A stretch of 64,000 nt of DNA from Marsupella aquatica (lineage: Eukaryota > Plantae > Marchantiophyta). Of the stretch, positions 3,301 through 47,854 are shown in pieces. The notes beneath the pieces are model-generated. The model was not told where the DNA came from and did no database searches. It saw only the letters and a program-made list of their open reading frames with translations. Position 1 is the first letter of the stretch. Each line of letters begins with the position of its first letter. Location: positions 8,063,241-8,127,240 of the forward strand of contig OZ316899.1 of assembly GCA_973895155.1 (NCBI GenBank), written 5' to 3'. A program made the translations under genes and the position numbers.

Positions 3301-4211
3301 AAACAAAGGCTATGTCACGTCATCAGCCTTGGCCTTAACTCGGGCTTCAGCTTTAAACGGGCACCTCCTTCGTAAATATGAGGGTTCGGGCAGGGAGGGA
3401 AGCGCATAATGCACCTAATTCACGTAAACTAGCACTAAGTGCGCCTACTGTTAGATACGGACATCTCCTAGGTATGGTTTATATTCCGCCGCCGGAACGT
3501 ACCTTAGTCGATAATAGGATCGACCCCGGCTTAAGGACTTCTAAGCCTTCGTGTTGTCCGCCTTCGATCCGGATTCAATGATACAGGTCCTCAACCCGTG
3601 CTCGCAACCACATACCCGCAAGCTACACCCCGTGCACGACTCGGGTAGTGCGTTCGGCCTGGCGTTGCCACCTATACACGAGATTCACACACACATACAC
3701 GCGTACAAGCATACAATCTTGATTTACACGAAGGAAATAATGGGAAAGGATTTTACTACATAGGGGACATGTGCGTACACTTGGTTGACCTGACAGCTCC
3801 GGAATGAATAGGTTCAAGGCCGAGAGAGTATACTACAACGGAGCCCGGCTCCGCACTCGCCCGATGAGCTTAGTCCTACCCCCTCCCCTTGGTACTCTTT
3901 CACTCCCAGAGGTCGGGACTCCCCGCGCATACCACGGATGTCCAACTCTGAGACTAAAAACCCCCCCTTGCCTCTACCGAGGGGTGCACTAAATACTAAG
4001 GGCCGGGGAACGGAGTGTCCTCCCGCCCAAAGATTCATTGACTTAGGTCCTAACTAATCTGTCTATCAGGCCGAAAAATGGCTGTGTCTTATTAGAAGAT
4101 CCTAATCTACGCAGGCTGGACAGCATGGCAGTGCTGCTGTAACTAAGGCAGGTGCCTGTCCCAATAGCCTGACTTAGCTACTCCTAACCCTATTCTATTC
4201 CTACTCCGCCA

Positions 4212-6817
4212 TTAATGCCTGGCACGCTTGCCAGAGCCGCCCGAGTGGGAGCGGCCATCCCGTTGCTTACGAAGTCTGTCGTTGTCTGCCTTGAGGAGCT
4301 GGACCTGGTCCAGCAAAGATTCGTTCTCTCACTTCGCCGCATCCGTCTCCTCCGCTGCCTCCTGGCATGCCTCCTCCAGCTGCTGGGCGTCGCTGGTCCT
4401 GCTTCTCGGCTTTGGTTTGGAGCCGTGCCACTTCGGCTTGTAGCGTGGCTATCTCCGCAGTGTCCCGCTGGGCCTGTTCTTCGGCCTCCTCCAGGTCCTT
4501 TTGCCAGATGATAGTTTGATTCTTCAAACTGTCAATCTGGTTCCGGAGTCGTGCAATCTCGGCCTTGTTCCCAGCTTTGGCCTGCTCGGCTAGGGCGGTA
4601 AGGGCGTGCGCCTTTGCTAACAAATCATCGGCGGCTGCAACTTTGGGTCGTAGTTGCAGAAGCTCAACCTCTTGAGCCGCAACTTTGTTCTTTAAGTATA
4701 CGGACTCCACCCGGTACCGCTCTATCCTCTGAAGGGCCTCTGACTGGGCCCAACCTGCCTTTACTACGGCAACTAACTCCTGATTGAAGAAACAGGCTAC
4801 CTTCCGAGCCATGAACTCCCCGGTATCCCGGGCAATTTGATGAGAGAAATTTCTCAGAAGCCCGTTCAGAAATGTACCCGGTACGAAGAGTTCCGGGTGG
4901 TCCAGGTTGTGCCTGTCCGGAGTTGGGCACGGGCAGATGTCAACACAAGCGGGGGCCGGGGCAGTGACATCCAGCCCTGGGGACGTAATGTTGGAAGGGG
5001 CTGGAGTGTCCTCCTGCAGCAATATCCGGTTCTCCGGAATAGCCACCGGTGGGTCTTTTGGAGACCCGGGCTCGAGTAAGACCTCCGCTGTACCAACTTC
5101 TGTACTTAGCCCGGCTTGTTGGATAGCATCAACGGTTGCGATAACCGACCCATCCGGTACCTCCTCGGTTACGATTACAGCTACTTGTGGAGGTGGGGTG
5201 GGTGAAGCTTGCGTGTCCGCTGGACTTTGGGCCTCGGGTTGGGGCCATCTCTCCAAGGCCGAAAAACCCATCTAGCTGGGACCAGCTTTGTAACGTTGAC
5301 ACGGGGAAGGGTTCGTCGATCAAACCAAGCGTACCACTCAAGAATGATCTCGATGTGGCTAGCGAAATACGCCTTCCCGCCAATGTACAACGTCTTCCTT
5401 CGCCGCTCCATCTCTTCATGGAATTTCTTAGCGAAGTACGACGCCCACTTCCTAGGTCGATAGTTCTCGACCTGGATAACCTGGGCGGCGGAGATCTCCC
5501 CCCGGGGCTCCATCATGTGGAGGGCGTACCTTTGGAACTCCAGTCGCTCAGCTATCTCGGGGATGAGGCAGGTCCTCATCACAAACCCGTTGTCCACTGC
5601 TCCTTCTGAGGGAAAACTCGAGGATTGGTACTTGGCTCCCTTGCCCCCGGGAGCCCGTGATTTGACTCGATGGTCACCTTCGGGTAATCCGAAGATCATC
5701 TTGAGCCGTTCTTCCTTAGGGACATATTCCTTCCCCGTAGCCGAGTATGCTGACGTGCGTCATCATAATTCTTGACGAATTCTGTCATGTCCTCCCCGTA
5801 GTACCTGCAAGTGTTCTAGGGCAGAGCGGCGAGGTGCTCGAATCCCTGAGTCTTCAGGTACACCGCATGCTTGGGATGGAGGATGTTCTTATGCACGTTT
5901 TCCCCCATGCGGTGCATTGTCACCTTGGCCACGGCTACCGTGGCCAATGGTAACCCGGATGCAGTGGCGGGTTCCTTCCTCTTCTTCCCCCGTGATTGGC
6001 TCGGGGAAGGTGACACCTCCCCATCCTCTCGATCGGGCATAGGTAGTGCTACCGCCGTTAGTATTGGTCCCGAGGCGGCCACGGTCACCGTGTTGTCTGC
6101 TGGAGCCGCTCCTTGGGTCCGAGCATGGGGAGGGGATGATGTAGTGTCGGCCCCCTGAGTGTTTGCTCCTCTGGGCCGCCTGAGCAAGGGTGGGGTAGCC
6201 TCGTCGTAGTCGCTAAGGTCCACAGCGTTGATGACAGAGCGTACTTGTACTGCTGGCGGGGCGATCGGCGGTGGGGGTTGGCTAGGCTGAGCCTGAGCCT
6301 GAGTCTGCGTTGGTACGGGTACGGGTATGGGGTCCACTGGGCTGGCGCCGGTGGTTGCGGGTCTAGTTCCCATGAAGCTCTGCAGGTGCTGGTAGAAATT
6401 CTCCGAAGCAAGTGCAGACAACCTTGTCAAACGGGTAGTGCTGGACTCGCTGTTGATGATAGCCCAAACCTGAGTAGGGATGTGGTCGAAGTGATGTCAT
6501 TGCAAATCGATCGTACCCGGGATATTGAAGAACTCGTCCGGAAGCCGAAGCAATGCTTCCCAGAAACTGATATATTTGTCTCTGTTGAAGAAGTACCCAG
6601 ATACCTCTGCTGGTCGGTAAAGCTCGCTCTGAGACGGGTAGTCAAAGTTAAGGATGTAGTGGTGTCGTCCTGCTAGGCGGATGGCTCTCTCATACTCGCG
6701 TTCGATTTCGTATCGGCATGGGTTGGCATGTTTCAATGAGTCGGCCAAGTGTCTTCCGGTAGATAGGAACTGCGTCCAGAATCGAATGGCCGAACTGGAG
6801 AGGATCGTGTGCGACAT
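4212..6817 (-). pseudogene. LTR-embedded accessory gene (about 860 codons): N-terminal domain, conserved central domain, coiled coil
   Basis: ORFs 6497-6817, 5816-6430, 5181-5699 and 4267-5271 join through two in-frame stops and several 1-bp frameshifts. Homologous by eye to the LTR-C protein (FNRDKYISFWEA~FCKDKIVGIWEA, IFGLPEG~VFGLPMG, EPRGEISAAQV~LPRAEIGKAQV). Confidence 0.8.
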
Positions 6818-6917
6818 TCAGAGGAGATAGTAGTGGCGACTTAGAGCGAACAAGAGAGCTGGGGTCGAAGCTAGCGCGTGGACTGATGGACTGGTGCACT
6901 CCAAAGGGTCGGCTCCC

Positions 6918-6925
6918 TTTTTATA
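6918..6925 (-). promoter_or_regulatory. Putative TATA box for the LTR-A embedded gene
   Basis: TATAAAAA about 100 nt upstream of the ATG at 6817. Confidence 0.45.
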
Positions 6926-7283
6926 CCTTGAGGGCTTGTCGATCCCCCGACATCTCCTCGTTGCCTATAGGCTGAACCGTTCACGTTTGTAGTGTACCGG
7001 CCACTCCGCCGGTCTGAGTCACTGCGTGTCAGTGGACGCCTCCTGAAGTTTGTTATACGGACCAGAGGAGGGGCCCCTCCACGCTCGTAACCCGGGCGTG
7101 CGAATGGCGACGCGCCGCCAGCCCAAACATGAATTCCCTTTATTGACTAATGATTTCCTACTCATAATGGCTACCTAAATACTGTCGTTATGCTAATCAT
7201 AGCGGCCTAAGATACCCCTAACGCGCGTGCTAGGCACGGTTTAGACCGAATTACTCATTACTCGCCGTACCGGCGGCGTCACA

Positions 7284-7661: not shown

Positions 7662-8716
7662 ATGATTGTTGTATTTACATGAAGGATGTGGAGAATTACT
7701 CACGTTTTGGTTACATTGTGCTGGCATTGTACGTGGATGACATGCTGATCCTAGCTGAGAATAAGTCTGATGTTGCCCATCTGAAAGCAATGCTGAGTAA
7801 GGAGTTTTCAATGAAGGACTTGGGTCAGGCCAAGAAGATACTAGGGATGGAGATTCATCGTGACAGGGAGCAAAGGCAATTATGGTTGTCTCAGAGGCAG
7901 TATTTGGAGAAGGTACTTGCCAAGTATGGAATGGAGAATGCAAAACCAGTTGGTACTCCATTGGCCTCCCACTTTAAACTCTCAAAGAATGATTGCCCTT
8001 CTAGTGAGAGTGATAGACTGGCGATGAAACATGTTCCCTATGATAGTGTTGTGGGTAGTTTGATGTATGCAATGACATGCACTAGACCTGACATTGCCCA
8101 CACTGTTAGCATTTTGAGCAGATTTATGGCAAATCCTGGTAAGCTTCACTGGGAAGCAGTGAAGTGGGTTTTGCAGTATCTGAAAGGTACCTTAGATTGT
8201 GGGATCTTATTTGACGGTAAAGCAGACTCTACATTAGAGTTGGAAGGTTTTGTAGATTCAGATTATGCTCGTAACTTGGATAACAAAAAGTCTACTACAG
8301 GCTATGTGTTTATGTTGGGTGGAGGTTGTATCAGCTGGAAGTTGGCAACTCAATCTTGTGTTGCGTTGTCTACTACTGAGGCTGAGTACATGGCTGCATG
8401 TGAGGCAACCAAGGAGCTGATCTGGCTACGGAGATTGGTGAGTGATCTGGGTCTTTCACCTGAAAGACCGGTGCTGCTGTGCGACAGTCAAAATGCTTTG
8501 CATCTGGCTAAGAACCCTGTGTTCCATGCCAGGACAAAGCACATTGATATTCGTTATCACTTCATCCATGAGGTGATTGAGACGAAGCAGATGTTTTTGG
8601 AGAAGGTGGCTTTAGAGGAGAATGCAGCAGACATGCTTACCAAAGTTTTACCTAGCAGTAGCTTTAGTCATTGTGTGGATATTATTAATGTTAGGGCCAA
8701 ACCAGTGACTATGTAA
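7662..8716 (+). pseudogene. Copia reverse transcriptase (C-terminal part) and RNase H
   Basis: LYVDDML, GSLMYAMTCTRPDI, FVDSDYA, STTEAEY and TKHIDIRYHF. 5'-truncated and fused in frame to LINE ORF1. Confidence 0.92.
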
Positions 8717-8783
8717 ATATGTTACTTAGTTACATATTGTATATCACCTGACTCATTGTGTGAACTTGAGTCAAGGTGGAGAT

Positions 8784-9078
8784 TGTTAGGAATTGACTCT
8801 AGTTTCCGACATAGTTAGCTTGGCCTTACTAGGGTTAGTTTTAACCCTAGATTACATTAGGATAAGATCCGCTTAGTTTAGGCCCACTCATCTTGGCCCC
8901 CTTGGGGGGTATAGGCTGGAGGGAGAGCACTCTCTCCCTCATTCTTCACATGTACTCTCATTTGCTATGGAGCCTTCAGGAGTTTCTCCACTTGGGGTGT
9001 CTCGTTGGTGTAGCGTTTGATTGAGTGTCTCTCATGTTTCCGCATTGTTGTCTAGTCTGGAGCCGACGGTTTCTTACA
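8784..9078 (+). repeat. Copia LTR
   Basis: TGTTAGG...CTTACA preceded by PPT CAAGGTGGAGAT. Matches the LTRs at 21359-21651 and 27450-27742. Confidence 0.92.
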
Positions 9079-9148
9079 AGTGGATCTCATTTCACTGCAT
9101 GTGATGGTGCGCTCTTTGTCATCAAAGATGATGTATCTTTGATTAAGG

Positions 9149-11597
9149 TGTCACGCGATTGACATGGGTCTTAACACCAAAAACGTCACTATGGGTGCCA
9201 AAACCATCTCCTTGTACCTGAGGATCACGAAGGGATGTTGTGAATGCCGATAAACACCAGTTTATGCCCTTAACACCAGACTATCATAGCAAGACTCTAT
9301 CACACATCACCCAAGCTCAATCCCAAGGAACCAAGGTTGGGGATCAGATCTGCGCTCATGATAGTTCTGGTGAGAAGGGGTCTTCATATCGGGCCCGTAC
9401 ACACAGGGCCTAGCACTACGGTGCGCAATAGGTCTATACATATGCTTACTGTCATAGGTATGTTTCTATTCCGCCGCCGGAATGTACCCATAAACCAGTG
9501 ACTCCTGACTGATTCCCGGCTTAGGGACTTCTAAGCCATTGCCCCACCACTCTGCCATTCCACTCTCAACAATCAGAGCTATGACAGTCCTCACCCAGCC
9601 CGCTTCAATGCACCCGGTACACCTCTCAGTGGCGCTGCTAGTTCCATCATACACTCAGATTGCCTCACACACACACACATCCATGAGAGAAATGAGGCCT
9701 GAGAGGAAAACTCAATTAGATTCAAAGATGTGCACAATAGTTCACTGAGAACACTTGATCCGAATACTAGGGCCGAAGGCTGTCTCCTCCAGATTGTGAC
9801 GTGCTTGCCCTGCAAGCCCCGTGCTTGCCATGCAAGCTCAATCCTGAACCTGAGCCCGGCTCACTCCAGATTGCGACGGCAGATTGGACTCGAACCAATC
9901 CCGTACTTGCCTTGCAAACTCAATCCTGAACTCAACCTCCTTCACTGCACTTCATTCTTGGGGGCACATACAGATCTCACACCTCCAATTCAGAACGTCA
10001 AGTTACGCATGCATAGTTGACTCGACTTCAAAGCTGGTACCAGGCCTAACGGCGATCTACCCCAGACTGCAATGAGGCCCGGCCTCATGCTTGCCCTGCA
10101 AGCTCAGCTCTGGCCATAGATCCCTTAGTGCTCTCCACCAGACAAAGGCCGGGACTCCCCATGGATCACGTAGCCTTGCCAGACTGAATTGTAAATGCTC
10201 CTCCTGCTGCCCCTTAATCAGTACCTCAGCCTCCCTAATGTGCCCACCGCAAATCGAATTGAAATCCTCCCCACAGTTTACAATCACCAATACATCACCT
10301 ATCACCAAGGCTCTGTATCGGGGGAAAAGAACCCAGTTGTGCTGCCCACTAGAAAGAGCCACAATCCAGCTCGCAAACCGAGCAACCCGTTGCTGTGAAG
10401 CTTGGCTGATTACTCCCTGAGTAATAGCACAACCAAGCTCTCCCCAACACGCAGCGTCCAAGTCCAGCCTTGCTTGCACAGAGCTCCTCCCCGCTGCTCA
10501 GTCTAAGTGAGATCACACAACTGAAGTCCCCCCCCCCCCTTGCCTCTACCGGGGGCTGCTCTATATACTCTCATACTGAGCCCAAATGGGTGGATACTAC
10601 GCTGCTGGAGCCCCATCCCAGCCCTAACAGAGCCGCCACTATCTCTAACTACTGAACCCTAACTCGCAACTTTATTTCTATCTCGAATTGGCTATGTACT
10701 TCGGATTCGGCCCTCCTCCATAGTTTTCGCGAGCTTGCGCCTCCTCTCCCGATTTCTCTATTTAACCATTTTCTGCGTGGATAGCACCGTTGGAAGCGGC
10801 TTGAGCTCCTCTTTCCAACGAGGTCAATTATAGCCGATTTGGTCAAATACACAGAGAGTTATGCCCCCGCAACCGAGAGGGGGTACTCACTGCTGCGCTA
10901 ACCCGAGTTACATAGCTAACCCGAATTTGGCTAACCTAGCTATCCTATCTAACCCGAGTAGAGCTAACCCGTGGTCTCGGGTTAGGCCGCTACCCGCTAT
11001 CCGCTATCCGCTAACCTAGCCTAAGCTGAGCCCGAATCCGAGCTTACCTATGCTAACCTGAGGCCGCGCTGACCTGAGCTAAGCTGAAGCCGTGTTGACC
11101 TGAGCTAAGCTGAAGCCGTGCTGACCTAAGCTAAGCTGAAGCCGTTCTTACCTGAGCTAAGCTGAAGCCGTGCTTACCTAAGCTAAGCTGAAGCCGTGCT
11201 GACCTGAGCTAAGCTGAAGCCGTGCTCACATAAGCTAAGCCGTGGTTAACCCGAAACTGAAGCCGAATCCGTTAATTTCGGCCACAAGTTAACCCGTCAC
11301 ACTAATCAGGCCGTATCTTTCTTAATACACCTCCGTTTCTCAAGTGTTTTATATCGATTTTACTCGCCTTGACCAGATCTTTCCAATGCTCTTTACAGAT
11401 CCGGATTTGGTGACATATTGAAAGAGATATGGTCGTCGACCACCCGCGACATAGCTTTTATTTCCCTACTCTTAACGCCATGATTGCCCTTATTCTTGCC
11501 ATCTTGCTAATTGTTATGCAATATCAATAGCTACTCCTTGCATACAGCAACCTACTTAATCAGATTACAAAATAAGGACCACGTCATTGGCGTCACA
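9149..11597 (-). mobile_element. Gypsy solo LTR-B (2449 bp)
   Basis: TGTGACGCC...CGTGACA termini and TSD TAAGG (9144-9148, 11598-11602). Removing it restores the Copia sequence GATTAAGGCGCTACG. Confidence 0.88.
11069..11244. repeat. 26-bp tandem repeat (about 6.5 copies) in LTR-B
   Basis: Unit CTGACCTGAGCTAAGCTGAAGCCGTG with minor variants, preceded by degenerate GCTAACCCG-type repeats from about 10895. Confidence 0.9.
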
Positions 11598-11760
11598 TAA
11601 GGCGCTACGACAAAATAATTTGTACATCTTGGAAGGAGATGTCATTGCTCCTAGACTGGAGCATGTGGATTCTGTGGTGGAACGTTTGGATGCAACGTCT
11701 GATTGAGTGTCTCTCATGTTTCCGCATTGCTGTCTAGTCCGGAGCCGACGGTTTCTTACA

Positions 11761-15200: not shown

Positions 15201-16422
15201 TCATTTCAAGGAATTTTTCTGCTTACCATCACCTTCTTCTACGATCTTAATCATGAATCGCGGGTACTCTGACCTTGGGAGCTTCCAGTGCAATGCATGA
15301 GTTACAAACTCCAATCTCTCTTTTATCCTATCATCTGTGCACTGTCGCATTTGATATCCTCTTGTATCATCAACTTCCTTGTGTTGGGGAAACAAAGCCG
15401 GTTGCCATGTTTTCCCCATCCTCTTCTTGATCTCAGCTCCTCTGGTTGGTAATCTGAATAGTTCTCGAAGTGTCCCTTGATCAGTCTTGATTAGTTGTCC
15501 CCTGTAGCTCCCTTGATTCCCTGAAGCTGTCCATGTTGTTATGAACTCGTTGTAATCTTTTGGTTTCAGGTTGGTGATTGTCGCCCATTTTGAATGAACA
15601 AATTCCCCGAGCCCCTGGTTTATCAAGAATTGCTTATGACTGCTACCTCGCATGTTCTCCAATATATGTGGCTCCATCCCTTTGAATTTCAGAACATGTT
15701 TTCCCGTATTGTGATCCTTCTTAACCCCACCTCTTGTTCCCGTACTTTGCCACTGGTTCCTCCTCCTCTTCAGTAGACTCCTCCTCAGTTTTGTCCTCAT
15801 CCGATTCGATCACTCGACTCTGCGCTTTACCCTTACTTCCGTTAATCGTTATAGCACGCCTCAATCCTATCCTTTTGGAAATTGTCATGTCTGGGCTTGG
15901 TGGTGTTGCTTTGCTGATTGCCATGATCTCCACATCCACATCTGCTCCTTTGATCAAATCATCCATTGTGGTCTCCGGTTCTGCTTCTTCAACTCTCTGC
16001 TTGTCCTTGGTCTTCTTCAATAGGCTCCCATCCATGATGGTCGATTTCTCCTTTGAATCATCTTCATCATCCTCCTTCTGCAATTTGACCCGATTACCCC
16101 CTTTTAACAACATTTCTTCTTGCATCCTTGCTTCCAGCAAGTCCGCAGTTTGCTCCTCCTGTATAGCTGTTACCTCCTCCGTTCCTTGTTCTTCAATCAG
16201 TTCCTCACCTTCTTCGTAATCCTCTATTTCTTGTACCATCTCTTCCACTCTTGTGGAACATTCTCCTTCCTCACGGTCCATAGTTCCCGCGCTGAGTTCT
16301 TCCTGTGGAATACTACTTCCCATTTCCGGTGTTTCCAGCAACTCGGCCACTGTCAATTTCTTCATTGGTGTATCGTCTTCAAATGACCCTGATCGTTTGA
16401 GTGTGATCAATTTCATTTTCAC
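15201..16422 (-). pseudogene. Accessory ORF of element D: acidic N-terminus plus the conserved central domain of the LTR-gene family
   Basis: ORFs 15721-16422 and 15201-15800 are joined by a frameshift. QGLGEFVHSKW, EFITTW, LFRLP, GYQMRQC and RLEFVTHALHWKLPRSE align by eye with the LTR-A and LTR-C proteins. Confidence 0.75.
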
Positions 16423-16615
16423 CGGTATTGAATAGCGATTAGCATCAACCCTAATCCACTTGAATCTTAGTTCTCTCTGATAATCGCTCCACTCTGCCGA
16501 TGCTCACAATTTCTTGGTTGGGCATAAATAGGATCTTTGATCAAGCAATGTCCTTATAATTGCCAAGGTCTCTCTTCTTTTTCCCTGTGCCCAATTGCCA
16601 TGTGCTTTTAACAGG

Positions 16616-19600
16616 TGTGATGCCTAGCCAGGAATCACTAGGCCGGTTTACATGGTAAAAGCAGGAGTGTACCCTGGAAACACCTTAGTATAGTAACAAG
16701 ACAAGGAAAATATAAACAATTAAGGGTGACTATGGAACCCGGGCCGAGGCCAAAAGTAAGGACGCCGGGGGAGAGAACACGATTAGGGTTAGGGCGCACT
16801 AAGCGTCGGCGGCTAGGGGTGACCAACGGGAGGGAAGACCAGAGGAGGAGAGGGGTAAGGACCGCTCGCAAGGAATAGTGGCTCATTTGCAAGCACAAAC
16901 TGAGTAGACCACTACGGGAGGCCAAATACTGTAGCTGCTTAGGCAAGCACTCTGGGTGGGAACAAATACCAACGATCGAGTCAAGGAGGGTATGAGCAAC
17001 GTCAATCAAGCGACACATTTTTGGGGATGCTTGTTCGAACGGGCAACTGAGTACATTGGGACTTACGAGGACAAAGAATTGGAGAGAGCAGCTCAAGAAC
17101 GGCAGGAGCTCGCTCGACTGTGGGAGTTGCAGAAGTCTGCCTTCTTAGGAGGAGAACTCATCAAGGCCGAGTTCTTGTGGACTCCTACTGCCAATCAGCT
17201 CGATGACCTTCTGTTTTGCAAAGACAAAATCGTCGGCATTTGGGAAGCCATCAACCGCTGCAACGACGCGCACTGGGAGTTGAAGGGTAGCACGGAAGGG
17301 TGGACAAAGGCAACTGTGTTAGAAGAAACATCCACGACAGCCGAGATGAAGAGGAAAGGAAACAACAACAAAGAGGCCACCCCGGCAAAAAGAACGAGGT
17401 CGGCGGCACCAAGGAAACCAGCAAAGCAGCAGAACAGGAGGCAGGGAGAAGCCAAAGAGGAGGAGGTCGATCCCATCAATGCCATTCCAACAAATGATGA
17501 CACTTGGAAAGGCTGGGCGGCAACCCTACCAGAGGAAGTGCAATTACATTTTGCACGGGAGGAGGATGCATGCTTTACGGCCATGTAGACCAAGAAGTAC
17601 CAGGGCTTCATGGCCGGATCCGGCTTGGAAGCCTTTGTAAGATTACCATGGCTGAAGCCGGAGGTGCCGGACTCAGACTTATTAGAATTCGTGGGATCAT
17701 GGGAACCCGAGACCAATTCCATGAGGGTGTATGGGAAGGATTTCTATCTCACTCCCTGGGTGATTGCCGAGGTGTTTGGCTTGCCGATGGGTAATAAGAC
17801 CAAGGTTGATACCAGGAAGACCTTACCTGACAAGGAGTTCCGGTTGTTCCCAGGACCATCAACGAAGAATGGCTTCTTCCGAAACACCTACACCAACCCG
17901 CACATCGGAGAGATGATCGATTTCTTGCGGGTGACCATGCATTGTAACTTGCCGAGGGCAGAGATCGGCAAGGCTCAGGTCTACCTGGCAAAAAGGCCAG
18001 ACCCAAGCCGGGATTACAACGGGTACCTCCTCAACCAACTGAAGAAAAACTTGAAGGAGGAACAGCAGGTGATCGGCGTGGGAAGCATGTCCCGGCTTGG
18101 CTATCACATGCCGCTGTTGTGCCGGTATGCCAGAAGTCAAATCTTTGTCCCAGTACTTCCCCTATCGGCAAGGGCACCGGAGGAGGTTCCGGAGCAGAGG
18201 CCGGCAACAGAAGAGCCCAACCAGCCTGTCAGTCCTACGATCGAGCAGGTGTTTTGGCCAAGGAAAGAAGACTTGCCGATGCAGCAATCAGGCATGCAGA
18301 ATTTGCTGAAAATGCTGGAGAAGGAGAGAACGGCACCAGCAACGGCAACGGCGCCGGTACAAGACACTGCCCCAGAGGCCGGCCTAAGCCGACTTAGGAG
18401 GGAAAACCCCTTTACCGGAGCAGAGGAGAGAAGGAGGCCGGAACACAAGCCGGGAGTGTGAATGTATGTGGGAGCCTCAAGCCCCGAATCGGAGGCAGAG
18501 CAGCCTAAGGCTCCTTCCCGCGGAGAGCAGAGGGAGAGGACAGCCTAGAACCGAGAGGAGGAACAACGGCCCGTGATCTGTGAGGCCATTTTCACGGCAG
18601 GACCAGGGGAACAGAGGGGGAAGCAGGGAGTCCAAGCAGTGGAGGAGGCGGTGGAGGACTACAGCAATGATAACTCCGGCTATGGGTCGGATCATCATGT
18701 TCCAGGAGTAAGGACCTATGGCCAATTTATCCCCACGCTTCCAAGAGTAGTTTGAGGGGACCCCACCCAACAGAGTAGCCCCGAGTCTCCCCCACCAGAG
18801 GTTGCTCCCCCGAGCTTTGACGGCATAAAACAGACGGCACAAGAATTTCAGGAGCGACTTAGGGAGGAAGAGAAAGCAGCCCTGGCTAGGGAGAAATATT
18901 TACCAGGAGGAGATTGGCCGGAGGACATCAGGCGGCTTGCCAAAAAAAGAAGCAACCCTCTTGCCACCGTAGAAGAAATCCGCAAGGCGGCTTGGGAACA
19001 GAGGCCGAGGTGGTTGATGCCGATGAATTCTACTTACTCCACCTATGCTAAGGATAGAGCCATGGAGTATGGGGAGATGTGTGGGGACCTGGCGCTCAGC
19101 ATCTTTGGGGAGGAGTTGGAGCAGGGACCTTTCGTCCAGAAGGAGAGGTTGGAGAAGCACCGATTAGAAGAAGCGGTGGCTTTGGAGAGAAGCAAGAAGG
19201 ACGAGGTCATTCGGCGGCTTAGGGAGAAGGAAGCCAAGGTGGAAGTCCTGCAAGCGGCCAAGAAAGCCCAAGATGAGTTGCGGATTAAGCGGCATGAGCT
19301 AAACATCATGCAGGGGCAGTTGGATACCGCTTAGTCTGACAATCAGATTATCAAAGATAAACTGACTCGGACCCAAGGAGAGTTGGCCGGCACAGTCAAG
19401 GAAAGAGAGAAATGGAAGCGGGAGCTAAGGGACGTAGAGGAGGCCCACTTAACTGCCAACAACCGGGCCATGGCGGAGACTTAGAGAAGGGAGAGGGCGT
19501 TGAAAGGAGAGCTCGAAGATATCCACGGAGCCCTTGAGTAGAAGGAAGCAGAGTTAGGGAAATCCTATCAAGGGATTATTGCGCTGTAGCAGGAGCTTGC

Positions 19601-21358: not shown

Positions 21359-21651
21359 TGTAAGAAACCGTCGGCTCCAGACTAGACAGCAATGCGGAAA
21401 ATGAGAGAGACTCACTCAAACGCTACACCGACGAGACACCCTGAGTGGAGAAAACTCCTGAAGGCTCCATAGCAAATGAGAGTACATGTGAAGAATGAGG
21501 GAGAGAGTGCTCTCCCTCCAGCCTATACCCCCCAAGGGGGCCAAGATGAGTGGGCCTAAACTAAGCGAATCTTATCCTAATGTAATCTAGGGTTAACTAA
21601 CCCTAGTAAGGCCAAGCTAACTAAGTCGGGAACTGGAGTCAATTCCTAACA
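21359..21651 (-). repeat. Copia 3' LTR
   Basis: TG...CA ends with adjacent PPT. Differs from the 5' LTR by 4 substitutions and 2 single-base indels, counted by eye. Confidence 0.95.
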
Positions 21652-21718
21652 ATCTCCACCTTGACTCAAGTTCACACTATGAGTCAGGTGATATACAATA
21701 TGTAACTAAGTAACATAT

Positions 21719-27434: not shown

Positions 27435-27447
27435 GGCTTTGATACCA
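27435..27447 (-). promoter_or_regulatory. Copia PBS (initiator tRNA-Met)
   Basis: TGGTATCAAAGCC, 2 nt after the 5' LTR. Confidence 0.9.
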
Positions 27448-27449
27448 CT

Positions 27450-27742
27450 TGTAAGAAACCGTCGGCTCCGGACTAGACAGCAATGCGGAAACATGAGAGA
27501 GACTCACTCAAACGCTACACCGACGAGACACCCTGAGTGGAGAAACTCCTGAAGGCTCCATAGCAAATGAGAGTACATGTGAAGAATGAGGGAGAGAGTG
27601 CTCTCCCTCCAGCCTATACCCCCCAAGGGGGCCAAGATGAGTGGGCCTAAACTAAGCGGATCTTATCCTAATGTAATCTAGGGTTAACTAACCCTAGTAA
27701 GTCCAAGCTAACTAAGTTGGGAACTGGAGTCAATTCCTAACA
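27450..27742 (-). repeat. Copia 5' LTR
   Basis: Direct repeat of 21359-21651. Confidence 0.95.
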
Positions 27743-31200: not shown

Positions 31201-31830
31201 AGAGAGCAATCTTGAATACCTTGCGGATCACTTCTCAAATCATGGTCCATTTTCTCTCTGGTCATTGCTTGTATGTCGTCCAACTTAACTACTTCTACTT
31301 CACTAATCGGTATCAAGTCAGGACGACATTTCATATAAGTTTCTTGTTCTTCCTCATTCAATCCTTCGGCCCAGTTGAGTGTACATACCCTAGCCATGGG
31401 TGGTGTACTATCATCGATGGCTTTGGTACGAATCTTGAATATTTCTCCGCGATGTTCGATCTTAATATAATCTTTATCTTCACCCCAGTGTTGCTTAACT
31501 TTGGCCTGTCTTAACCATGGCCGGCCCAACAGCATTGGTTGCCCCATGGTTGAATTTGCATCTCTCAGTACTACTACGCCTAGATTATACTTAATGCCTG
31601 AGATTAACATGGGCAAGTCCTGCACATAGCCTAGTGGATGACAGCTGCTCTGATCAGCCATTACTAGATTAAAAGGTGTCGGTAACAATTTCACTTTTCC
31701 CAACATTCTATATGTCTGTTCACTCATAAGATTTACTGCAGATCCCTCGTCCAATAGGACATTCTTTAATTTAATTCCTTTAACACTTATTTGTACTATT
31801 GCACCTTTATCAATTAAAGAAATTTTTCTT
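28248..31830 (-). pseudogene. Gypsy D pol: protease, RT, RNase H, integrase
   Basis: LDEGSAVNLM, LGRPWL, SPIVVVPKKNGKLRVCIDF, FLDDF, YYASR, GLDF, SDQGTHF, YHPQCDGQAE and WEGPF. Stops and frameshifts present. Confidence 0.93.
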
Positions 31831-32398
31831 GCTTGCTTGATATAAAGGTACTCACGGTAATGTTGTAGGAGTGGTTTTCCCTTCCAACTTCCTTAACATT
31901 GCTTCCACTAGTAGAAATACCCCCTATTTTTGACCATAAAATACGACTGACTATGACTAAAACCGGTCATGTATGACTGAAAATCACTGACGTCGTTCTT
32001 GCAACTAGTAGTCGTAAAAGTGGTGACTTGGATTGACTTAGTCATATTATTCACTAGTGTCATTAGTCATTTTAGTGACTAGTCAAGTATTTGGAACCAT
32101 ACATCAGTCAAATATAAGTGTTTAGAATGACTTAGTTCGAGTCATATGGGGTTTTCTGTGAGTGATTGATAACACTCAATTGACTGCACTAGTTTCCGTA
32201 GACAATGATGTCATTCATAGTCGAGACTGAGTCATTAATGTCACAAAAGCACCAATCCAACTAACAATGGCATGATAATAACTCAAAATATGAGCAATCC
32301 ATCAAAAAATAGAGTATTACCCAACATCATGTACTCCAAATTGTGGTCATATATTGAAACAATCCTTCACATTTTGAGTCTCAAATTGTACTTGGTAC

Positions 32399-39250: not shown

Positions 39251-39615
39251 TAAACAGGCTTATACAATTGCATATTCTAAGTACATGGAGGGACACATGC
39301 AAGTTTCATGAAGGAAATATCACAGACGCTAAACACACTCACTATCAAGTTCGCTCTGTGCTGCGCCCAACCTGCCCACGTATCATCTGCTCACTACAGG
39401 CAGCAACATCATAACAGACTTGCTATAATCAGTGAAGTGCTTGGTCGTTGACCAGTCAATGGTACAACGTACATCATACACGGCCATACATCTCCACATG
39501 CAAAACCAAGACATTTGGAGGATGAAAAGGAGTAATGTCTTGTAGACCAAAAATAACACACAAGAGTTTATTTCAAAAATGTAACCGTCTAGCATACAGA
39601 CAGTTGAGACCTTAC

Positions 39616-40629
39616 TTATTCATAATCATTAGGGTTAACAGAATCATACGCACTATCAAAAAACTCTTCATCTGTGGTCTGGAACTCAGAAGTAACATAT
39701 TCTGGGTTGTCATAGGGAATGAATGGCTTTGTTGGCCATATTTCATATAAATCATATTTATGCTCATCTAATCGCATATTTGTTGAAAGTGACTGCCTGA
39801 CCCATTCAGGGCAGACCACACGCAGCCCATGTGTGATAAGCCATTGTACTGTGGACTTTCCATACTCTCAGCATGCCTTAGAATATGAATGAGCAATGAG
39901 ATGGGTGGTCTCATTAGTGAGCTTCTCAATTACTGTACCACCTCTTCTACTGATCTCCCTCTTGAAACGACAGACCCTATATGGCTTGATAGACTTGTCA
40001 AGTATAACAGCCCTCACACCTCTGAACATGGTACGGTTTGGGATGGGTTCTGTCTCATATGGGAGAATGTTGTTGTATACTTTTGTGATCTGGTCAATAG
40101 ACGAAACCCTACTCCCACCTCTCCCTGCAATTCTACGAGCCTTGTGCCAATCTCGACTGTCTTTCATCATTTGGACGCTATTGTACTTTCTCTCAAACAA
40201 ATTGTAATCATCAGGATCTTGGACAATCCCTTTTCTAAGGGAGTCAGACATCCATTCTGCTGAAAGTATTTTGACATGCCTCAAGAAGACTTTGTCATAG
40301 AAAACCGACCAAGATGCCATTTTCAGACAATGTTCCCATGTTTCTGCAATAATATGGGTGACTTCAGTGTCCTGTAGTTGAGATTGTGTCTTTGTACCGT
40401 GACGCTCAATGAGTTTTCTCCTAAGGATATCCAATCTTGCACTCTGAATACCCGGGACAAAAAAGACTCTGACCCCTTGGAAGATGGGAGCACATTGGGA
40501 AGTTGGAAGGGGGACAGGTTCACGCTTCCGTTTGGAAGGCAATACATGCAGTAAATCCCAGCACGGAGTCAATACATGCAGTAAATCCCAGCACGGAGTT
40601 ATAGGACAAACCATATACTCTTCAGTCAA
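39616..40629 (-). pseudogene. Tandem BRCT-domain protein with one in-frame stop
   Basis: Two BRCT-like units: IFQGVRVFF...VTHII...AEWMSDSL..Y and MFRGVRAVIL...RRGGTV...TTHLI...PEWVRQSL..Y. ORFs 39868-40629 and 39616-39819 are in frame across a single TGA. Confidence 0.75.
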
Positions 40630-43600
40630 ATTATTTTCACCATGTGTTCATGTAATTACATTGATGAAAGTAGAGCGACAGCCTACTTCAGTATACACAT
40701 AGCATACATGTGGCCCTTTATATTGTCTTGTCTGCATATAGCCTGAATTCACATTTGAATACCTGTATCTTACATGACAGTGGTGGGGACTGAGAATGAT
40801 ATCATTCAACTGCCCAAATTCCAGTCACATCTGTAATTGTACAAATGTATGGGGCATCACCACCGAGACAGGAAAACAGGATTCTTGTTAACAGGAAAAT
40901 AGGAACTGTTAATTAACAGTAAAGATATGAAGTTTTTGGCCCACTTTTGATGGAAAGGTAAGACTTGATCGGGTTCCTTGCAACAACAAAATTCACATGC
41001 TATCTCTGTAACTGAATTACTTGTCCAGCATATATGCGTAAACCATAGAGTGGGTCCCACCATACACAGGCTACTGAGGTGAGGCACACTCCAAAAATAC
41101 CAATCTTAAAAATATCATCGGAATCGGTAAGGTACTATGTAATAGCGCTAGGCGCTAACAAAAAAACCAAGGGGTTTGAGATGAGACCAAATGGATTGAA
41201 CGGTGTTCATAAATAAATAATTAAGTACACTTCAATGAAGTGTGACCTGGAAGGGGAAGATTTATATCCCACGAGAAGAACTCAAATATAGGAAAGTTCA
41301 CAAACGGAGATTCCGATCGCAAAGATAAGTACTGGAAAGCATTCGGACCATAATCAAACAAGATTCACTCAGAAAGGGACAAACTGAAGCTAGCGCCCGG
41401 CGCTAGCCATATGTTATAACAAAATGTGTAAAGAAAATGAGTATCTGATTAGGTATCATTGAAAAGATGTGAAACGTTCCAATGCGACAAATCAGTTTGG
41501 AGCCGTTGAACGTTACTAAATGTCTAGTCTATAAGTCCAAAGAATTCTGCCTAGCTAGAATGAGCCTCACCTCACCTACAGTCAGAATTGGCTGACTAGC
41601 CAAAGTTGAATCCACCACATCTAGTTTTAGGACGTTGGTATACACCCAATAGAGATGCTTGCACGGCATGAAGGGCCTACCATGAGAATGGCGACGATAG
41701 AAGTCCTCACAAGAACAACATGGGAAAATGCAAATCTGTACCCAATAAGTGTTTGTCGTGTGAAGTCTCTCTTGGGTTTGGATCTGAAATTGTTTGCCCC
41801 AAGAGTTCCCGATAGAAACATCAAATTGTTGAACGAGAGTCATTGACTCCTTGTTTGCGGATTCAATTCTTTTGTTGTGCCCTTGCGAAAGATTTGAACG
41901 TGGGATTGTATTTTTACCATTCCTGCTCCAAAGGCGGATATTTGGCTCAAGGAGATTGATTTTCTCCGGGAAAAGGTTCACATTGATTCGCAAGTCAAAA
42001 GGAGATGGAGCAGCCTGACGTCCGGCCTCTAGATTGATAGCAATCCCTTGCTGAGTCAGGAATTGGACCTCAGCCTCGGAAAGATTCACCACATTATGAC
42101 GGGGCCGGCTCTTATAGCATGCACTATTGGGACAAAACCAAATCATCTCAGGGTGTGGTTCTCCCCTGAACATGCGATATCCTTTGACAACAATGCCAAC
42201 TACACCATCCGTTGACGGGTAACCAACCTTTTTAAGATGATTGCGACAGTCATCTCGATCCGATTATTTTCCACCAAGAGATCCATTACACTGAGGCCCT
42301 GCACCATGTCTCGTCACTCTTCGTAGGTGCCACGCCCCTGGTCGCACATCTGTCTCCAACATAGGTGAGTCATGGACAACCTTTTGGAGGTTGGGAGGTG
42401 CAGACCTTTTGGAGGTTGGGAGGTTGGGAGGTTGGGAGGCTGCAGACGACCTTGTTGACCTCCTCCAGGGCGGAGTACTCCAATGTCTGCCTTCTTCAAT
42501 TTCACTTTCTGACAGGTCCACAACGCCAATGTCATGGTGAATAGGACCCGATGCAACGGGGGAGAATTCAGTCTTGTTTAAGTTTTTCTTTTTCATGCCT
42601 CGAGTATTTGGTGATGTTACAAGAATAGTGTCATGCCGATGGGAGTCTTGTGCCGAGATGTTCCCAGAGGCTTGACCTTTCCTCTTCATAGACTTTGTGG
42701 TAACATCCCCATTGAGAGGGCCACTCCTTTCCAGGTCGAATTCAGCCGCACCGGAAAGAAGCATATTGGAAGCATCTTGGAAAAGTTTTGAAGAACCTGC
42801 CTGGTCTGCCGAACGGAATGCCAATTCCCAAATTGTAGGTCCGGTTCCTCGGTTAAGACCTCTCTTATACGTCGTATACGTAGCAACTTGTGAAAGAGCC
42901 CTATTTTGATCCATCTCACATGCTTCAAATAGACCAGCCTTTTTCTTAGTTTGCCAAGCCTTCATCATGGAATGTGCCGCCTCTGAAGTAGTACAGTTAG
43001 GAATCATAGCGCTTTCCTCTACGCTTTTGTTCTGCATAAAACATTTGGAGCACAGTTTAGGAAATATGGCTTAGTCACTGCATTCAATAAAGAAACATTT
43101 GAACCAAATCATTTGGTTAGATTTTCGGGTTTAATCAATGCCAGCGCCTGGCGCTACCACCATTCACACTAGAATATGGACAAATACGAGTAACAAGTGG
43201 TTCATAAAACTAGTGTCGGGTGCTAGTATCAAAACTCGGGCAAATATTGGAGTGGAACTAGGACACGGAAGTCACTGGAAATAATGATAGCGCCAAGCGC
43301 TAGTATGACTTTGTTTGATTCCTTCTTTTAAAATGTTGATTCGTGTGTTTACTTGTTTATGGATGTTGAAACTCACCAAACAAATAAAATTTCCCCATTG
43401 ACGCCATCGGACCACCCACCACGCAAGCCAACCTTGGAGCATCCGAAGCTTTCCTGGAACACAATTCCCTGATCTCCACATGTCAATTTCCCTGGAAATT
43501 CTGTAGGCTCCAAGAAATGTTGACGCGTTCCTTAAAGAGTCCCACATCTTCCGGTGCTCTTCTCGTTTTTCTTCCAATACTCCTTCAATTGAATGACGAT

Positions 43601-44232
43601 GAAACGATTGATAGAAGTGAAACGCATCCGATCGCTCCTTTTCCGGGTTAGGATGTCCACCAAAAAACACGTTCCGGACAACATTCCATCCAGCTTGAGC
43701 ATTGTCAGCCATGAATCCATGGATTACTGTGATATAGCAATTATTCAGAATTTCTGTGAAAACTTTAAAATTTTCAACTTTTTGAGATAAGTAGTGATTC
43801 GCCTCAGGTTATCTATATTAATTAGGAGCATTAGAGTAGTTAAGCCATCCTCAAGTACATCCTTGTACTCTCCTAAAACTAGTTCCTTTTACAACCATGT
43901 CAAACCGGAGTCACAATAGCAGCTTATACGCTTACGCGCTGATGCTTCCAGACGCTTATACGCAGCCCACCCTGCCGGTAACCGAAAGTAACCGTTGACA
44001 ATGAGGAGGGAGTGACAGAGTGACTTACTGGACCACCTGCTCGCGATGAATATTTCCACTTCCCTGTTTGCTACCAAAGGCCTCGACGATCATACGCCCA
44101 TACGTAGAGACGCTTGAGCGCTGTGGCATTTATACGCTCATACGCAATCACGCCAATACGTCCGACATTTTGCAACTTAGATTTCTGTGGCAATAGTGAA
44201 TCAAATTCCAAGAACCGTGGCTACAACTTGCC

Positions 44233-45810
44233 ATGGCGGGCGTGGAGGAGATGAGTAGCGATTCCCCTATTCCGAAAGCTGTACCTGTGAAGTACCCCGC
44301 ACTGGAGAGGGATTTGATGTTATTGACCGATGCTCTAGAAGTTATGCACCTGGGAAAACTTCTATCCATTCCGTGGTCTTCTATGTGTCCTACCTACTTG
44401 CGCGAGTTCGCTGATGAGTCTCAGATTCCAGAAGCTTTTCAAGAGACTGTTCGAGCAAATCCCGAAAAATGGGACTTGGAATTCGTGGCCGACGCTTTTA
44501 GTTGTCCATCAAAAGGTTGTGGTTTACAATCTGGAAAGAGTACTCTATCTGATCCAATGTTCGCTGGGACGATAAATACGAAGGCTGGATGGAAGCTAAA
44601 TCAATGTATTGATTATACCTTCAAAATTATCCTTGAGTTTTTAGTGCCGATTTTCCATCCCACTCGACCTTACATGGTACCTGTATCTTTGGCGAACACA
44701 TTTGTTACTTCATGGAAGGGACTTGCTGAAGTTAATTGGGGATTGTTACTGAGACACACCATCCTCAGTCAAATCAATGCTGTACAGAATGAAAAACCTA
44801 CATACCTCCCAGCTTACCTCAGTCAGCTTTACTGGTATGGAGACTGTCTACTCCCACAAGAGAAGCTCGAAAGGATTGCACTATTGGAGGAATTAGATGT
44901 GGAACATTCAGAGGCTGATTCGAGACTCGATGATCTGAGAATGGAGGAAACATCAGAAGCCAATCATCAAGAAATTATACCACCTGCTCTGGAACTTATG
45001 GATGAGGATATTAATTCTCACGTTGAGATTACACCTTACCATACTAATAGTAGTCCGACCGACCACTCTCCTCTCCCTGTTATCCCTGCCAGTGAACACA
45101 ATCATCCAGAGAAATTGATTGATGATGAGAAGGCTATTTTTAATCAGGATATAGTAGACAGTTTGTCCAGAATGCTGACCTGTGATCCAGAAGAAATCCT
45201 CCCTATTGTAGATAGATTAAGGACTGCTTCTGTTACTCAACCCTCACCAGCCTATAACTGTATTACTCCATACAATCCCACTTCCATTTATTCACCCACC
45301 CAGAGTCCTATCCAATCAAAACATCCATTCACCGAAGGACAATCAGAAGCCCCTAGGACTACACATCACCTCTCTCTGACAGACATCGAGTATCCAGACA
45401 CTATCATGGGATCCCCAATGGATGAGAGATTACCACCACTGAGAACAGATCTTCAACAAATTATGAATACTTCACCCCGACATCCAACTGAGTACTATTT
45501 TAATCTTGTGGGTGAGATTTGCAAGATGTTGGAATGTGATCCCGGTCATTTGATCGAAATATTAGATGAGATTATGTATAGATTATCACGTATTTCAAGC
45601 CACGACCAGCACTTGGAATACTATGAAGATCTCGTCCACAGATTCACTCAGATGTTTGGCTGCAACACCAAACAAGTTTATTCTGCAGTTCGCTATCATA
45701 CCTCAGCATCAGGCTCTCCCATTTCTTATTCTAGTTCTCCTTCTAGCCATTCACCTACTTCTCCTTATAGTCCTTCAAACCAACCAACCAACTTTTCCCT
45801 AGTTTTTTAG
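44233..45810 (+). CDS. LTR-E embedded accessory protein, 525 aa, distant member of the LTR-gene family
   Basis: Uninterrupted ORF. HLGKLLSIPW, LREF, VADAFSCP, GWKLNQC and ILEFLVPIFHPTRP correspond in order to the central domain of the A, C and D proteins. Confidence 0.75.
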   Translation: MAGVEEMSSDSPIPKAVPVKYPALERDLMLLTDALEVMHLGKLLSIPWSSMCPTYLREFADESQIPEAFQETVRANPEKWDLEFVADAFSCPSKGCGLQSGKSTLSDPMFAGTINTKAGWKLNQCIDYTFKIILEFLVPIFHPTRPYMVPVSLANTFVTSWKGLAEVNWGLLLRHTILSQINAVQNEKPTYLPAYLSQLYWYGDCLLPQEKLERIALLEELDVEHSEADSRLDDLRMEETSEANHQEIIPPALELMDEDINSHVEITPYHTNSSPTDHSPLPVIPASEHNHPEKLIDDEKAIFNQDIVDSLSRMLTCDPEEILPIVDRLRTASVTQPSPAYNCITPYNPTSIYSPTQSPIQSKHPFTEGQSEAPRTTHHLSLTDIEYPDTIMGSPMDERLPPLRTDLQQIMNTSPRHPTEYYFNLVGEICKMLECDPGHLIEILDEIMYRLSRISSHDQHLEYYEDLVHRFTQMFGCNTKQVYSAVRYHTSASGSPISYSSSPSSHSPTSPYSPSNQPTNFSLVF

Positions 45811-45998
45811 AACCTGAGATCACTCCTACAGATGCACATCTTGCCATTTCTTTCCCTGACACTCTTCCATCCAGTCAAGACAAGTCATGCCAAGTCAATT
45901 TTATCCCTACTCTGCATATCGATCCAAAAACCCCTCAGGAGAGTATTAAACAGTTTGTTGAGTTTGTTAGAGTCTCAGACCTTAGATCCCCTCCTATT

Positions 45999-46694
45999 TT
46001 GGAGTTTTGGAAATATTACCATAAGAAGAGAGTTGAATGCCTTTATATCTTGAAACTTCATCTGCTAGAGGTCACTCGCTTGGAGATAGCAGAGATGGAT
46101 GAGATCTGGACAGAAGCTGAGCATTTTTTCCCTGTACTCGCTGTCATGATCCTCGTTGGACACCTTGTATTGGAGAATGGAGATCTGGCTCTAGCTTATT
46201 TCGGGAATTTACCTGCTTATGTCCTGGAGTTCATCATTGTCTTCTTAAGACAAACCAAGAGGAGATTTCAGATGAATCATGAAGCTTCTCCAGTCCAGCC
46301 TGTTGTCCTCCAACGATTTGTTACTCCAGTATCTGAGAAGCAGAGGATTTGGAATAACATCACTTCTCAGCGATTAACAGAGTATACTCTGAAGTGGCGT
46401 GAACTCCTACCATTCGCCAGAGACTCCGAGGTATTCATGGCCAAGTTTCCTCAAAACTACCATGCTACTTGCTGCACTTACGACTTCATTGGTATTTACA
46501 TGCAAGCTAGCAAGGTAAATACCATGCTACATCGGAGGCTACTTCCTGTACTTGATCTTGAACGACAGCGGAAGTCCTTACCTTTCTATCGGCATCACAC
46601 TCAAGATATGGATGCAATTCGAGAAGCTATGCAGACCAACACCTACACCAGAGCTCAGCAACCAGATCCGACGGCACTACTCCAACAAGATTAA
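45999..46694 (+). CDS. Second LTR-E ORF, probably the -1 frame continuation of 44233-45810
   Basis: The frame is already open upstream of the first ORF's stop (..QLFPSFLEPEITPTD..PILEFW). Confidence 0.55.
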   Translation: MEFWKYYHKKRVECLYILKLHLLEVTRLEIAEMDEIWTEAEHFFPVLAVMILVGHLVLENGDLALAYFGNLPAYVLEFIIVFLRQTKRRFQMNHEASPVQPVVLQRFVTPVSEKQRIWNNITSQRLTEYTLKWRELLPFARDSEVFMAKFPQNYHATCCTYDFIGIYMQASKVNTMLHRRLLPVLDLERQRKSLPFYRHHTQDMDAIREAMQTNTYTRAQQPDPTALLQQD

Positions 46695-47854
46695 CTCTAC
46701 TACGACCATAGTTAAGTTATATAGATCCACGCAATTTTAGTTAAATAGTTAAAATAGTCAGAAAAGTCTCATACTTTTCCAAGAGATAGCCCTTACGTAG
46801 TAGAACCTACCTTGAAAATCTCAACTCAAACCGACATGTGTTTTGAAAGTTAAAAATATTTTAGTTTTGTTGTTTTCTGCTTAAACGCAAAAGCGCTAAT
46901 GCGCTTATGCGCCTATGAGCTTATGCGCGCATGCGCCCAACACTTAGAAAATTTTCCAGTTTTCATTTTTCTATAACATTTTTAACACTTTTACCTATTT
47001 TATTGAGACACTTAGGCACCTCAGAAAAGTCTCATATTTTACCAGCATGAAGAATATACAAGCAAGCAAGCACTCTATGTTATTGATGAGTACTTAATAC
47101 AAAGAATTTATTCCCCTTCCTTGTGTTTGAATGTTGAGATTTCAGACCAGAGAAGTAAAACTTTATGATTGATGAATCTTTTGAATGTGTGGAGATAGAT
47201 TCCTTAATTGGTGAAGGCTATACATTCTTGAGTTCTTGATGCATATATTTTTGGCATAACATTGCTTGTGCACGAAGTGCAAAGAATGGTATCACCCAAT
47301 TACCTGTGACTTTAAGTTGTTGATGATGGCGCTTGATATTCGTGACTCAAAGTACCGATTGGATGCTGAAGTGATTGGTTGTTAATCCTAACTTAGTACC
47401 TCGGAAAGAAAGGTTGAGATGTGTAGACGGCACCCTAACAACCATCCCAGTAAAGTATTCCATTCCAGAAATGTCCTTACAAGTTCAATACCTTAAATCA
47501 TCTCAAATTAAGTTATGTTGAGAAGTTACCTTGGTATTTTCCAGACTCCCTCACCATACCTCAAGATTTTATTGTGTTTTGTTAATTGTTTCCATTTTGT
47601 TATTTTATTTACAATGTTAAGCAAACATTCAAAACTATGCCTTACTGAGCAACCATAGTAAAAGACTCACCTTTGTGTTTTTGTTACTTAAGTCATTCAA
47701 AAGTGCTAAATCATAGAAAATCATTTCTTACATGTTCTTCCATGGGAACGAATACCGAGTTTTGGATCTTAAATGTTTATTTATGTTCCTAGTGTGATAC
47801 TACAATTACTACGTTGTCTAACCCATTTTCATGGCAAACCTCAATCATAAATTT

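Follow-up and report, generated by a model that had tools for sequence, protein, structure and literature searches.

Non-chromovirus Gypsy retrotransposons of plants (Athila, Tat, Ogre, Retand) carry extra open reading frames (ORFs) that encode PMD, Transposase_28, ATHILA ORF-1 or Transposase_32 domains and a coiled coil. In the accessible parts of the relevant papers these ORFs are described only in the internal region, and long terminal repeats (LTRs) of up to ~5 kb are known in the same group (PMC6317226; PMC4408406; PMC11963269; PMC7264820). What the extra ORFs do is a stated open question in the available text of three of these papers (PMC7264820; PMC11963269; PMC4408406). Tat-like elements of mosses are covered there with no extra ORFs reported (PMC4408406), and the accessible part of a report on a liverwort names Tat, Phygy, Selgy and Athila elements without LTR detail (PMC12885004). 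Here we describe a 64,000-nucleotide stretch of the liverwort Marsupella aquatica (assembly GCA_973895155.1, contig OZ316899.1, forward-strand positions 8,063,241–8,127,240; hereafter the window). Three of its units, A, C and E, are fairly probably giant LTRs of non-chromovirus Gypsy families that contain broken copies of a conserved gene for a VANC21-like, likely DNA-binding anti-silencing protein.

One of the closest described proteins is VANC21 of VANDAL21, a Mutator-like DNA transposon of Arabidopsis (PDB 9LNK/9LNJ). According to the available part of its description, VANC21 binds a short motif that is densely arrayed in one orientation, and strips methylation from its own family (PMC5735166). 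Excerpts of two further papers state that VANC resembles MAIN/PMD proteins, which counter silencing (PMC13547354), and that the PMD-C proteins MAIN, MAIL1 and MAIL2 counter Polycomb silencing at motif-bearing loci (bioRxiv 2024.09.27.615353). In the literature searched, sequence-specific anti-silencing was found for Mutator-like DNA transposons, with no report of it for a retrotransposon.

Genes within or overlapping U3 are known from retroviruses, namely sag of mouse mammary tumour virus (MMTV) and nef of human immunodeficiency virus (HIV). Like these, the gene described here lies between LTR ends, a position in which every provirus holds the gene twice and solo LTRs retain it; unlike them, it encodes an unrelated protein, spans 820–1,140 codons and resides in 4–5-kb LTRs of a plant retrotransposon. 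The accessible part of PMC3601003 makes no mention of ORF, sag or nef. Literature searches, which covered listings and openly accessible text, turned up no description of a gene residing in the LTR of a plant element. A Gypsy extra ORF with a predicted VANC/PMD fold, placed in the LTR, is likely to be new.

Three units with LTR-like ends contain an accessory gene

The window is made up of nested plant transposons, among which Pfam matches and ORFs identify Gypsy, Copia, CACTA, Mutator-like and long interspersed nuclear element (LINE) fragments. The features that bear on the three units are the following (TSD, target-site duplication; PBS, primer-binding site).

3313–7283, minus strand: unit A, likely 5′ LTR of a Gypsy element, 3,971 bp, TG..CA ends, contains an accessory gene; followed by PBS and gag, outer end against LINE ORF1
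3285–3300, minus strand: PBS of element A, non-Met type
1–3189, minus strand: gag and protease of element A, Retrotrans_gag E 1e-8, several stops, continuing beyond the left edge
4267–6817, minus strand: accessory gene of A, ~850 codons, broken, profile matches E 1e-28 and 0.0017
16616–21293, plus strand: unit C, likely solo LTR, 4,678 bp, TSD ACAGG, splitting gene D in register
16992–20414, plus strand: accessory gene of C, a single frame of 1,140 codons interrupted by nine in-frame stops, shared domain at 17583–18203, long coiled-coil-like region
43728–47804, plus strand: unit E, likely solo LTR, 4,077 bp, TSD ATTAC, inserted in a Mutator-like transposase
44233–46694, plus strand: accessory gene of E, ~820 codons, 525 open codons that take in the entire shared domain, followed by one frame shift

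Coordinates, TG..CA ends, the TSDs of C and E and the PBS and gag after A are as an initial annotation of this DNA had given them, and the units are indeed dissimilar in DNA, the sequences of A, C and E being unalignable. Its gene lengths of about 820–1100 codons hold as spans; the genes are not intact, since every copy is broken. That of A has two in-frame stops and at least three frame shifts (shared domain at ~5929–5322), and that of E is interrupted by its frame shift near 45771–45807, its two parts matching residues 1–443 and 544–808 of a single open 808-residue homologue (P0005/P0156).

A TSD with TG..CA ends was rejected as proof of an LTR, its frequency being at chance level: the window holds 636 TSD-TG..CA-TSD pairs 3.5–5 kb apart, and eight pairs of the stricter TGTGA..ACA form (three plus, five minus) compare with a shuffled mean of 4.5 and maximum of 9. 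The ends were therefore fixed by independent evidence, and TG..CA termini stand at the ends so fixed in all three units. The 5-bp TSDs of C and E have continuous flanks. For C this is seen in the reading frame of gene D, where the in-register frame has no stop in 20 codons to the right of the junction and one in 65 to the left, against three and one (right) and four and four (left) in the other frames. For E it is seen in a transposase homologue (P0166) that spans the insertion in register, with residues 507–523 on the right flank (weak alone, E 5.9) and 523–640 on the left; the right-flank translation also resembles the residues preceding the conserved GFMAD motif in four transposase homologues. 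The termini of E, TGTGAT at the start and ATACTACA at the end, are like those of the LTR of a relative, L001 (see below).

Beyond the 3′ end of A come a short spacer, a PBS and gag; the same was seen after neither C nor E. The PBS, presumably of tRNA-Asn type, is the sole match to the probe with at most two mismatches on both window strands. On its outer side A adjoins LINE ORF1 (DUF4283), and one 1,751-base contig tracks the LINE from 7282 onward without A; the TSD, the partner LTR and the other end of the element lie beyond the window. Contig depth, summed in four runs from two studies at an 85% cut-off and not equivalent to copy number, was 8,000–460,000 in 24 bins inside A against 9–243 in two LINE bins, a drop of > 100-fold beyond the outer end in all four runs. 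Likewise, all 24 bins were deeper than both gag-side bins in 4/4 runs, and the gene was covered like the non-coding parts of A. Contigs tile the whole of A with low-depth skips only, and the 24 loose contig ends inspected, out of 1,615, all appeared by eye to be local variants of A and not foreign DNA. On balance, A, C and E are very probably LTRs.

Order of gag, protease, reverse transcriptase, RNase H and integrase, absence of a chromodomain and a non-Met PBS place L001 and, by Pfam, the neighbouring element F among non-chromovirus Ty3/gypsy elements, and the gag-protease region of element A resembles that of F. The best named matches of the F reverse transcriptase-RNase H are angiosperm proteins (~42–51% identity). 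The Tat-clade marker aRH, an additional RNase H of archaeal type, was absent from the F polyprotein, which matched RT_RNaseH families only; the pol of A itself lies beyond the window. As in plant Gypsy elements with extra ORFs, the PBS is non-Met and the TSD 5 bp long, the gene occupies the usual 3′ sense position in L001 and in D, and it is a single long gene with a globular domain and a low-complexity or coiled-coil tail. It differs from those extra ORFs in lying between the LTR termini in A, C and E and in matching no Pfam family at cut-off.

The accessory gene was under purifying selection

Three further stretches of the window belong to the same gene family, and a fourth is a solo LTR related to A.

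53009–53865, plus strand: first remnant of a second C copy (C2), 87% to C 17202–18058
63483–63946, plus strand: second remnant of C2, 83% to C 18054–18515
15201–16615, minus strand: gene D, fourth family member, profile match E 5e-39, interrupted by C and a Copia element and cut by a LINE
9149–11597, minus strand: unit B, gene-less solo LTR related to A, 2,449 bp, TSD TAAGG within a Copia coding region, which another copy has uninterrupted

B and D were absent from the initial annotation, which had also placed a second C copy at 53009–64000. Only the two remnants listed match C: C2 is a 1.3-kb remnant without the 5′ end, split by a nested 9.6-kb insert, and C-like sequence past 63946 probably extends to the window edge.

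Profile comparison shows that A, C, E, C2 and D share one domain of ~190 residues, which had no Pfam match at cut-off. It has 257 related clusters at E ≤ 0.001; five of the 29 checked carried a species name, in each case the leafy liverwort Calypogeia fissa. A word-based protein search with the E domain gave one relative among 1,323 candidates, and a metagenome scan two loci out of 123; viral contigs held no family member, and prokaryote genomes no locus related to the domain of A. PMD, Transposase_28, ATHILA and Transposase_32 Pfam domains were found neither in the window proteins nor in 50 homologues, and one of 110 gave a Transposase_32 match (E 0.005); DUF1985 and DUF287 gave no match. Downstream of the domain, the 3′ part of the A gene is predicted to be coiled-coil-like, with weak coiled-coil-type Pfam matches under the cut-off.

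No copy in the window is intact. The gene was under purifying selection, a point that the initial annotation had suggested checking. Between C and C2 the ratio of non-synonymous to synonymous substitution rates was 0.18 across 433 codons and 0.12 when restricted to the domain, against 1.29 and 0.94 in shifted-frame controls, and the synonymous excess holds in transversions (17/25, p 3e-8).

The predicted fold of the shared domain moderately resembles VANC21

The domain was modelled from E (predicted local distance difference test score, pLDDT, 97) and from C (pLDDT 89.5). With either model, VANC21 was the only one of 48,161 solved chains to reach Z ≥ 5: the E model aligned with it over 194 residues at Z 7.3, the root-mean-square deviation (rmsd) being 3.9 (next match Z 4.1), the C model over 180 residues at Z 7.6 and an rmsd of 4.1 (next match Z 3.3). 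Foldseek also ranked VANC21 first for the C model (prob 0.87, TM 0.53, E 0.17). Besides this moderate likeness in predicted fold over 180–194 residues, the family has in common with VANC21 a conserved domain followed by a variable tail. Oriented motif clusters, the arrangement described for VANC targets (PMC5735166), occur in the relative L001. The family differs from VANC21 in being encoded by an LTR retrotransposon, in sharing 9–11% identity and lacking DUF1985/DUF287, and in being known here from sequence and models. MAIN, MAIL1 and MAIL2 are host genes, and the proteins described here have no PMD Pfam match; the likeness to them runs via VANC, according to the papers cited above. As these papers relate VANC to PMD-C in structure, the gene family is probably of the same fold class.

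In L001 one 7-mer occurs 15 times on the sense strand against 0.61 expected, and none of 25 simulations was as extreme. Its four clusters lie at 637–700 (linker between protease and reverse transcriptase), 5069–5131 (accessory gene), 6748–6803 (LTR) and 7992–8031 (leader), and from their sequence may be candidate binding sites of the protein P0007. Candidate target motifs in one orientation are clear in L001 and, as a tandem array, in B. A repeated motif noticed by eye in the non-coding parts of E was discarded, being not above simulation (4/25).

Several results weigh against a VANC21-like DNA-binding function. The fold match is moderate, Z < 8 being common according to the warning of the tool, and the E and C models were built on mostly shared alignment rows. 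With the E model, Foldseek matched nothing in PDB and BFVD at E ≤ 0.001; structural re-comparison of its candidates reached Z 3.4 at best. A profile search of PDB sequences gave 12 low-complexity or weak matches at E ≤ 10, VANC21 not among them. Furthermore, motif clusters in A, C and E were not clearly beyond simulation (1, 1 and 4 of 25 as extreme).

On another reading the gene-bearing LTRs encode something else, either a structural or RNA-handling protein (coiled-coil multimerising, like env-like or ATHILA ORF products) or a plain transcriptional activator. Such a product would also suit the Atlas leads, Transposase_32 (0.83) and ATHILA ORF-1 (0.82), both under the 0.9 level and function unassigned, which are compatible with a remote relationship to the known domains of extra ORFs. 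However, the sole solved fold match of both models is a DNA-bound anti-silencing protein, the motif clusters of L001 are oriented and PMD-type folds are tied to chromatin; we consider a product of this other kind rather unlikely. If the units are LTRs, an anti-silencing or chromatin role is reasonably probable. The guess at anti-silencing made in the initial annotation is to this extent backed by the predicted VANC21-like fold, within the limits of a moderate match.

Placement of the gene differs between families

L001 represents a complete related element, assembled in collapsed and circularly permuted form, with the order pol, accessory gene, polypurine tract (PPT), 991-bp LTR, PBS and gag. 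Gene D lies ~0.5 kb downstream of its pol (28248–31892) and is probably internal; a lineage-type PPT, i.e. the signature found in F and L001, is absent from the 505-bp gap between them. The OTA-type internal location of the extra ORF is thus seen in L001 and probably in D, and not in A, C and E. LTR placement is therefore a state of some families and not of the gene family. A, C and E behave as gene-containing LTRs, as had been claimed, while the claim does not hold in general; the short LTRs and internal ORF that had been named as refuting it are found in L001 and not in these three units. In a quick domain tree E fell beside L001, and A and C clustered with D, both groupings being strongly supported (60 of 155 rows, 95 being omitted for short coverage or thinning; six labelled rows; shuffles uninformative). 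On this tree, placement therefore changed at least twice.

The gene of L001 is flanked by two near-identical PPT-like tracts, at 3752–3770 and 6557–6573. The upstream tract lies just after the integrase and precedes GG; TG comes after the second alone. Between the upstream tract and the end of the LTR there are 3,794 bp, of which 451 bp lead up to the ATG and 1,114 bp follow the stop codon. The distance from unit start to ATG is 466 bp in A, 376 bp in C and 505 bp in E, and that from stop to unit end 954, 879 and 1,110 bp respectively. Since the geometry of L001 matches that of A, C and E, a PPT shift would convert one layout into the other.

Alternatively, the gene could be an ordinary internal 3′ extra ORF throughout, with A, C and E representing deleted or recombined copies, in which the LTR start was joined to the gene and the PPT disappeared, or else a derivative that is non-autonomous and lacks gag-pol. 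The internal layout of L001 and probably D weighs in that direction and against LTR residence, and C2 lies directly after the pol of element H. A weak purine-rich run at ~20435–20450, after the C gene, could be a PPT relic, and TATA-like sites both before and after the A gene fit either a U3 or an R/U5 placement. Paired LTRs around gag-pol were not seen among contigs, which are too short to span them, and no unit was seen with a PPT directly before its start; for A there was none among the 24 inspected of its 1,615 loose ends. The depth profile of A also has its weaknesses: the four runs represent two studies, one of them possibly the source of the window, and the gag-side depth is perhaps underestimated because those contigs sit near the 85% cut-off. 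For an internal gene, however, the LTR start would have to recur after it, and in A, C and E alike neither a repeat of the unit's ends nor an inner PBS nor a lineage-type PPT is present. This reading also requires the same double loss in three unrelated families, and is at odds with the contigs that tile A and with the PBS and gag after its 3′ end. We therefore regard deletion or derivation from an internal ORF as quite improbable.

That C and E are DNA-level mobile units with TG..CA ends, as in integrase-type DNA transposons, is very improbable: both lack gag-pol, are flanked by TSDs only and were seen in no PBS-linked form, but they have neither a transposase nor long terminal inverted repeats, a 3′ block of C recurs in the solo LTR B, E has both termini in common with the L001 LTR, and in D and L001 the gene family goes together with a Gypsy pol.

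A possible route into the LTR and its consequences

Given giant LTRs with a VANC21-like gene, we propose that the accessory gene is the 3′ extra ORF of the lineage. The start of an LTR is set by plus-strand priming. The likely step is a shift of priming to a PPT on the upstream side of the gene: both LTRs would then receive the gene in U3 together with its promoter, and solo LTRs formed by LTR–LTR recombination would retain it. L001, with its gene between two PPT-like tracts, would represent the state needed, and the change may have run in either direction. The protein would belong to the VANC/PMD structural class, act in trans and bind DNA in a sequence-specific way; produced from LTRs that are young and intact, it would shield its family from host silencing via short family-specific motifs.

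A fuller scenario, in which several bryophyte Gypsy families moved a VANC-like anti-silencing gene into the LTR by a PPT switch, so that each insertion has two copies and solo LTRs, left by the LTR–LTR recombination through which the host mainly removes the element, still make the factor and unsilence the family in trans, is possible but doubtful. A continued supply from solo LTRs had been put forward in the initial annotation; the copies in the window, solo LTRs included, are all broken, which weighs against it, and the solo LTRs seen here therefore make no full-length protein.

If LTR residence is true, a gene in the LTR would survive solo-LTR formation, and solo LTRs would therefore not always be inert. 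In intact copies each LTR would be a self-contained gene, likely aiding escape of the family from host silencing. Surveys restricted to ORFs between LTRs, or capping LTR length, would miss such families. The VANC21-like fold also makes the role of extra ORFs directly testable, through the bound motif and then the silencing of the cognate family.

Related solo LTR, shared motifs and neighbouring elements

Unit B has the same termini as A, and three blocks are common to the two. One block of 30 bp, common to A and B, recurs near the 3′ end of C (90% to B). The 5′ half of B holds a 26-bp tandem array of 8.5 copies (11020–11240) where A has the gene, and an 11-mer from this array is present once, in the opposite orientation, near the 3′ end of A. 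B could serve the factor as a non-coding client, or the pattern may be chance. A 16-base hairpin-like motif is common to A (6904–6919, minus strand) and C (20421–20436, plus strand) with one difference, the only two occurrences in the window; in A it comes after the TATA-like site preceding the gene, and in C after the gene.

Upstream of C2 lies a further Gypsy element:

47860–53008, plus strand: element H, decayed gag-pol, integrase cut off directly against C2

The pol of H, truncated in the integrase, joins C2 ~590 bp into the C unit. H and C2 may belong to a single element in which a deletion spans the PPT. Enrichment of TGCCGA (8 in C, 4 in C2 and 11 in H versus 0.27/kb elsewhere) had suggested the same, and was dropped as evidence because 2 of 35 other pairs scored better.

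The 9.6-kb insert that splits C2 (53866–63482, TSD AAGGA) begins with Gypsy F and ends with unit G. F has identical 267-bp LTRs, an open gag-pol of 2,050 codons and a CpG observed/expected ratio of 0.13–0.16, and lacks the accessory gene; no locus related to its gag-protease was found in viral contigs. Unit G (2.9 kb) has a CA end without a TG start of its own and contains several short tandem arrays. The TSD of F itself is mismatched. A T-rich spacer of ~11–14 bases separates LTR end and PBS at 3301–3312 and 54133–54146 in the window and at 7565–7575 in L001.

An Rfam search gave no matches. Two copies of one Copia family, ~96% alike, are present: a complete one at 21359–27742 (TSD GTATG) and a partial one at 7662–11760, which lies within the LINE and contains B. 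Finally, an ORF with two BRCT domains (39868–40647, minus strand; Pfam E 6e-12) lies between a CACTA transposase (37.5–39.2 kb) and a Mutator-like gene, and is possibly transposon-carried.

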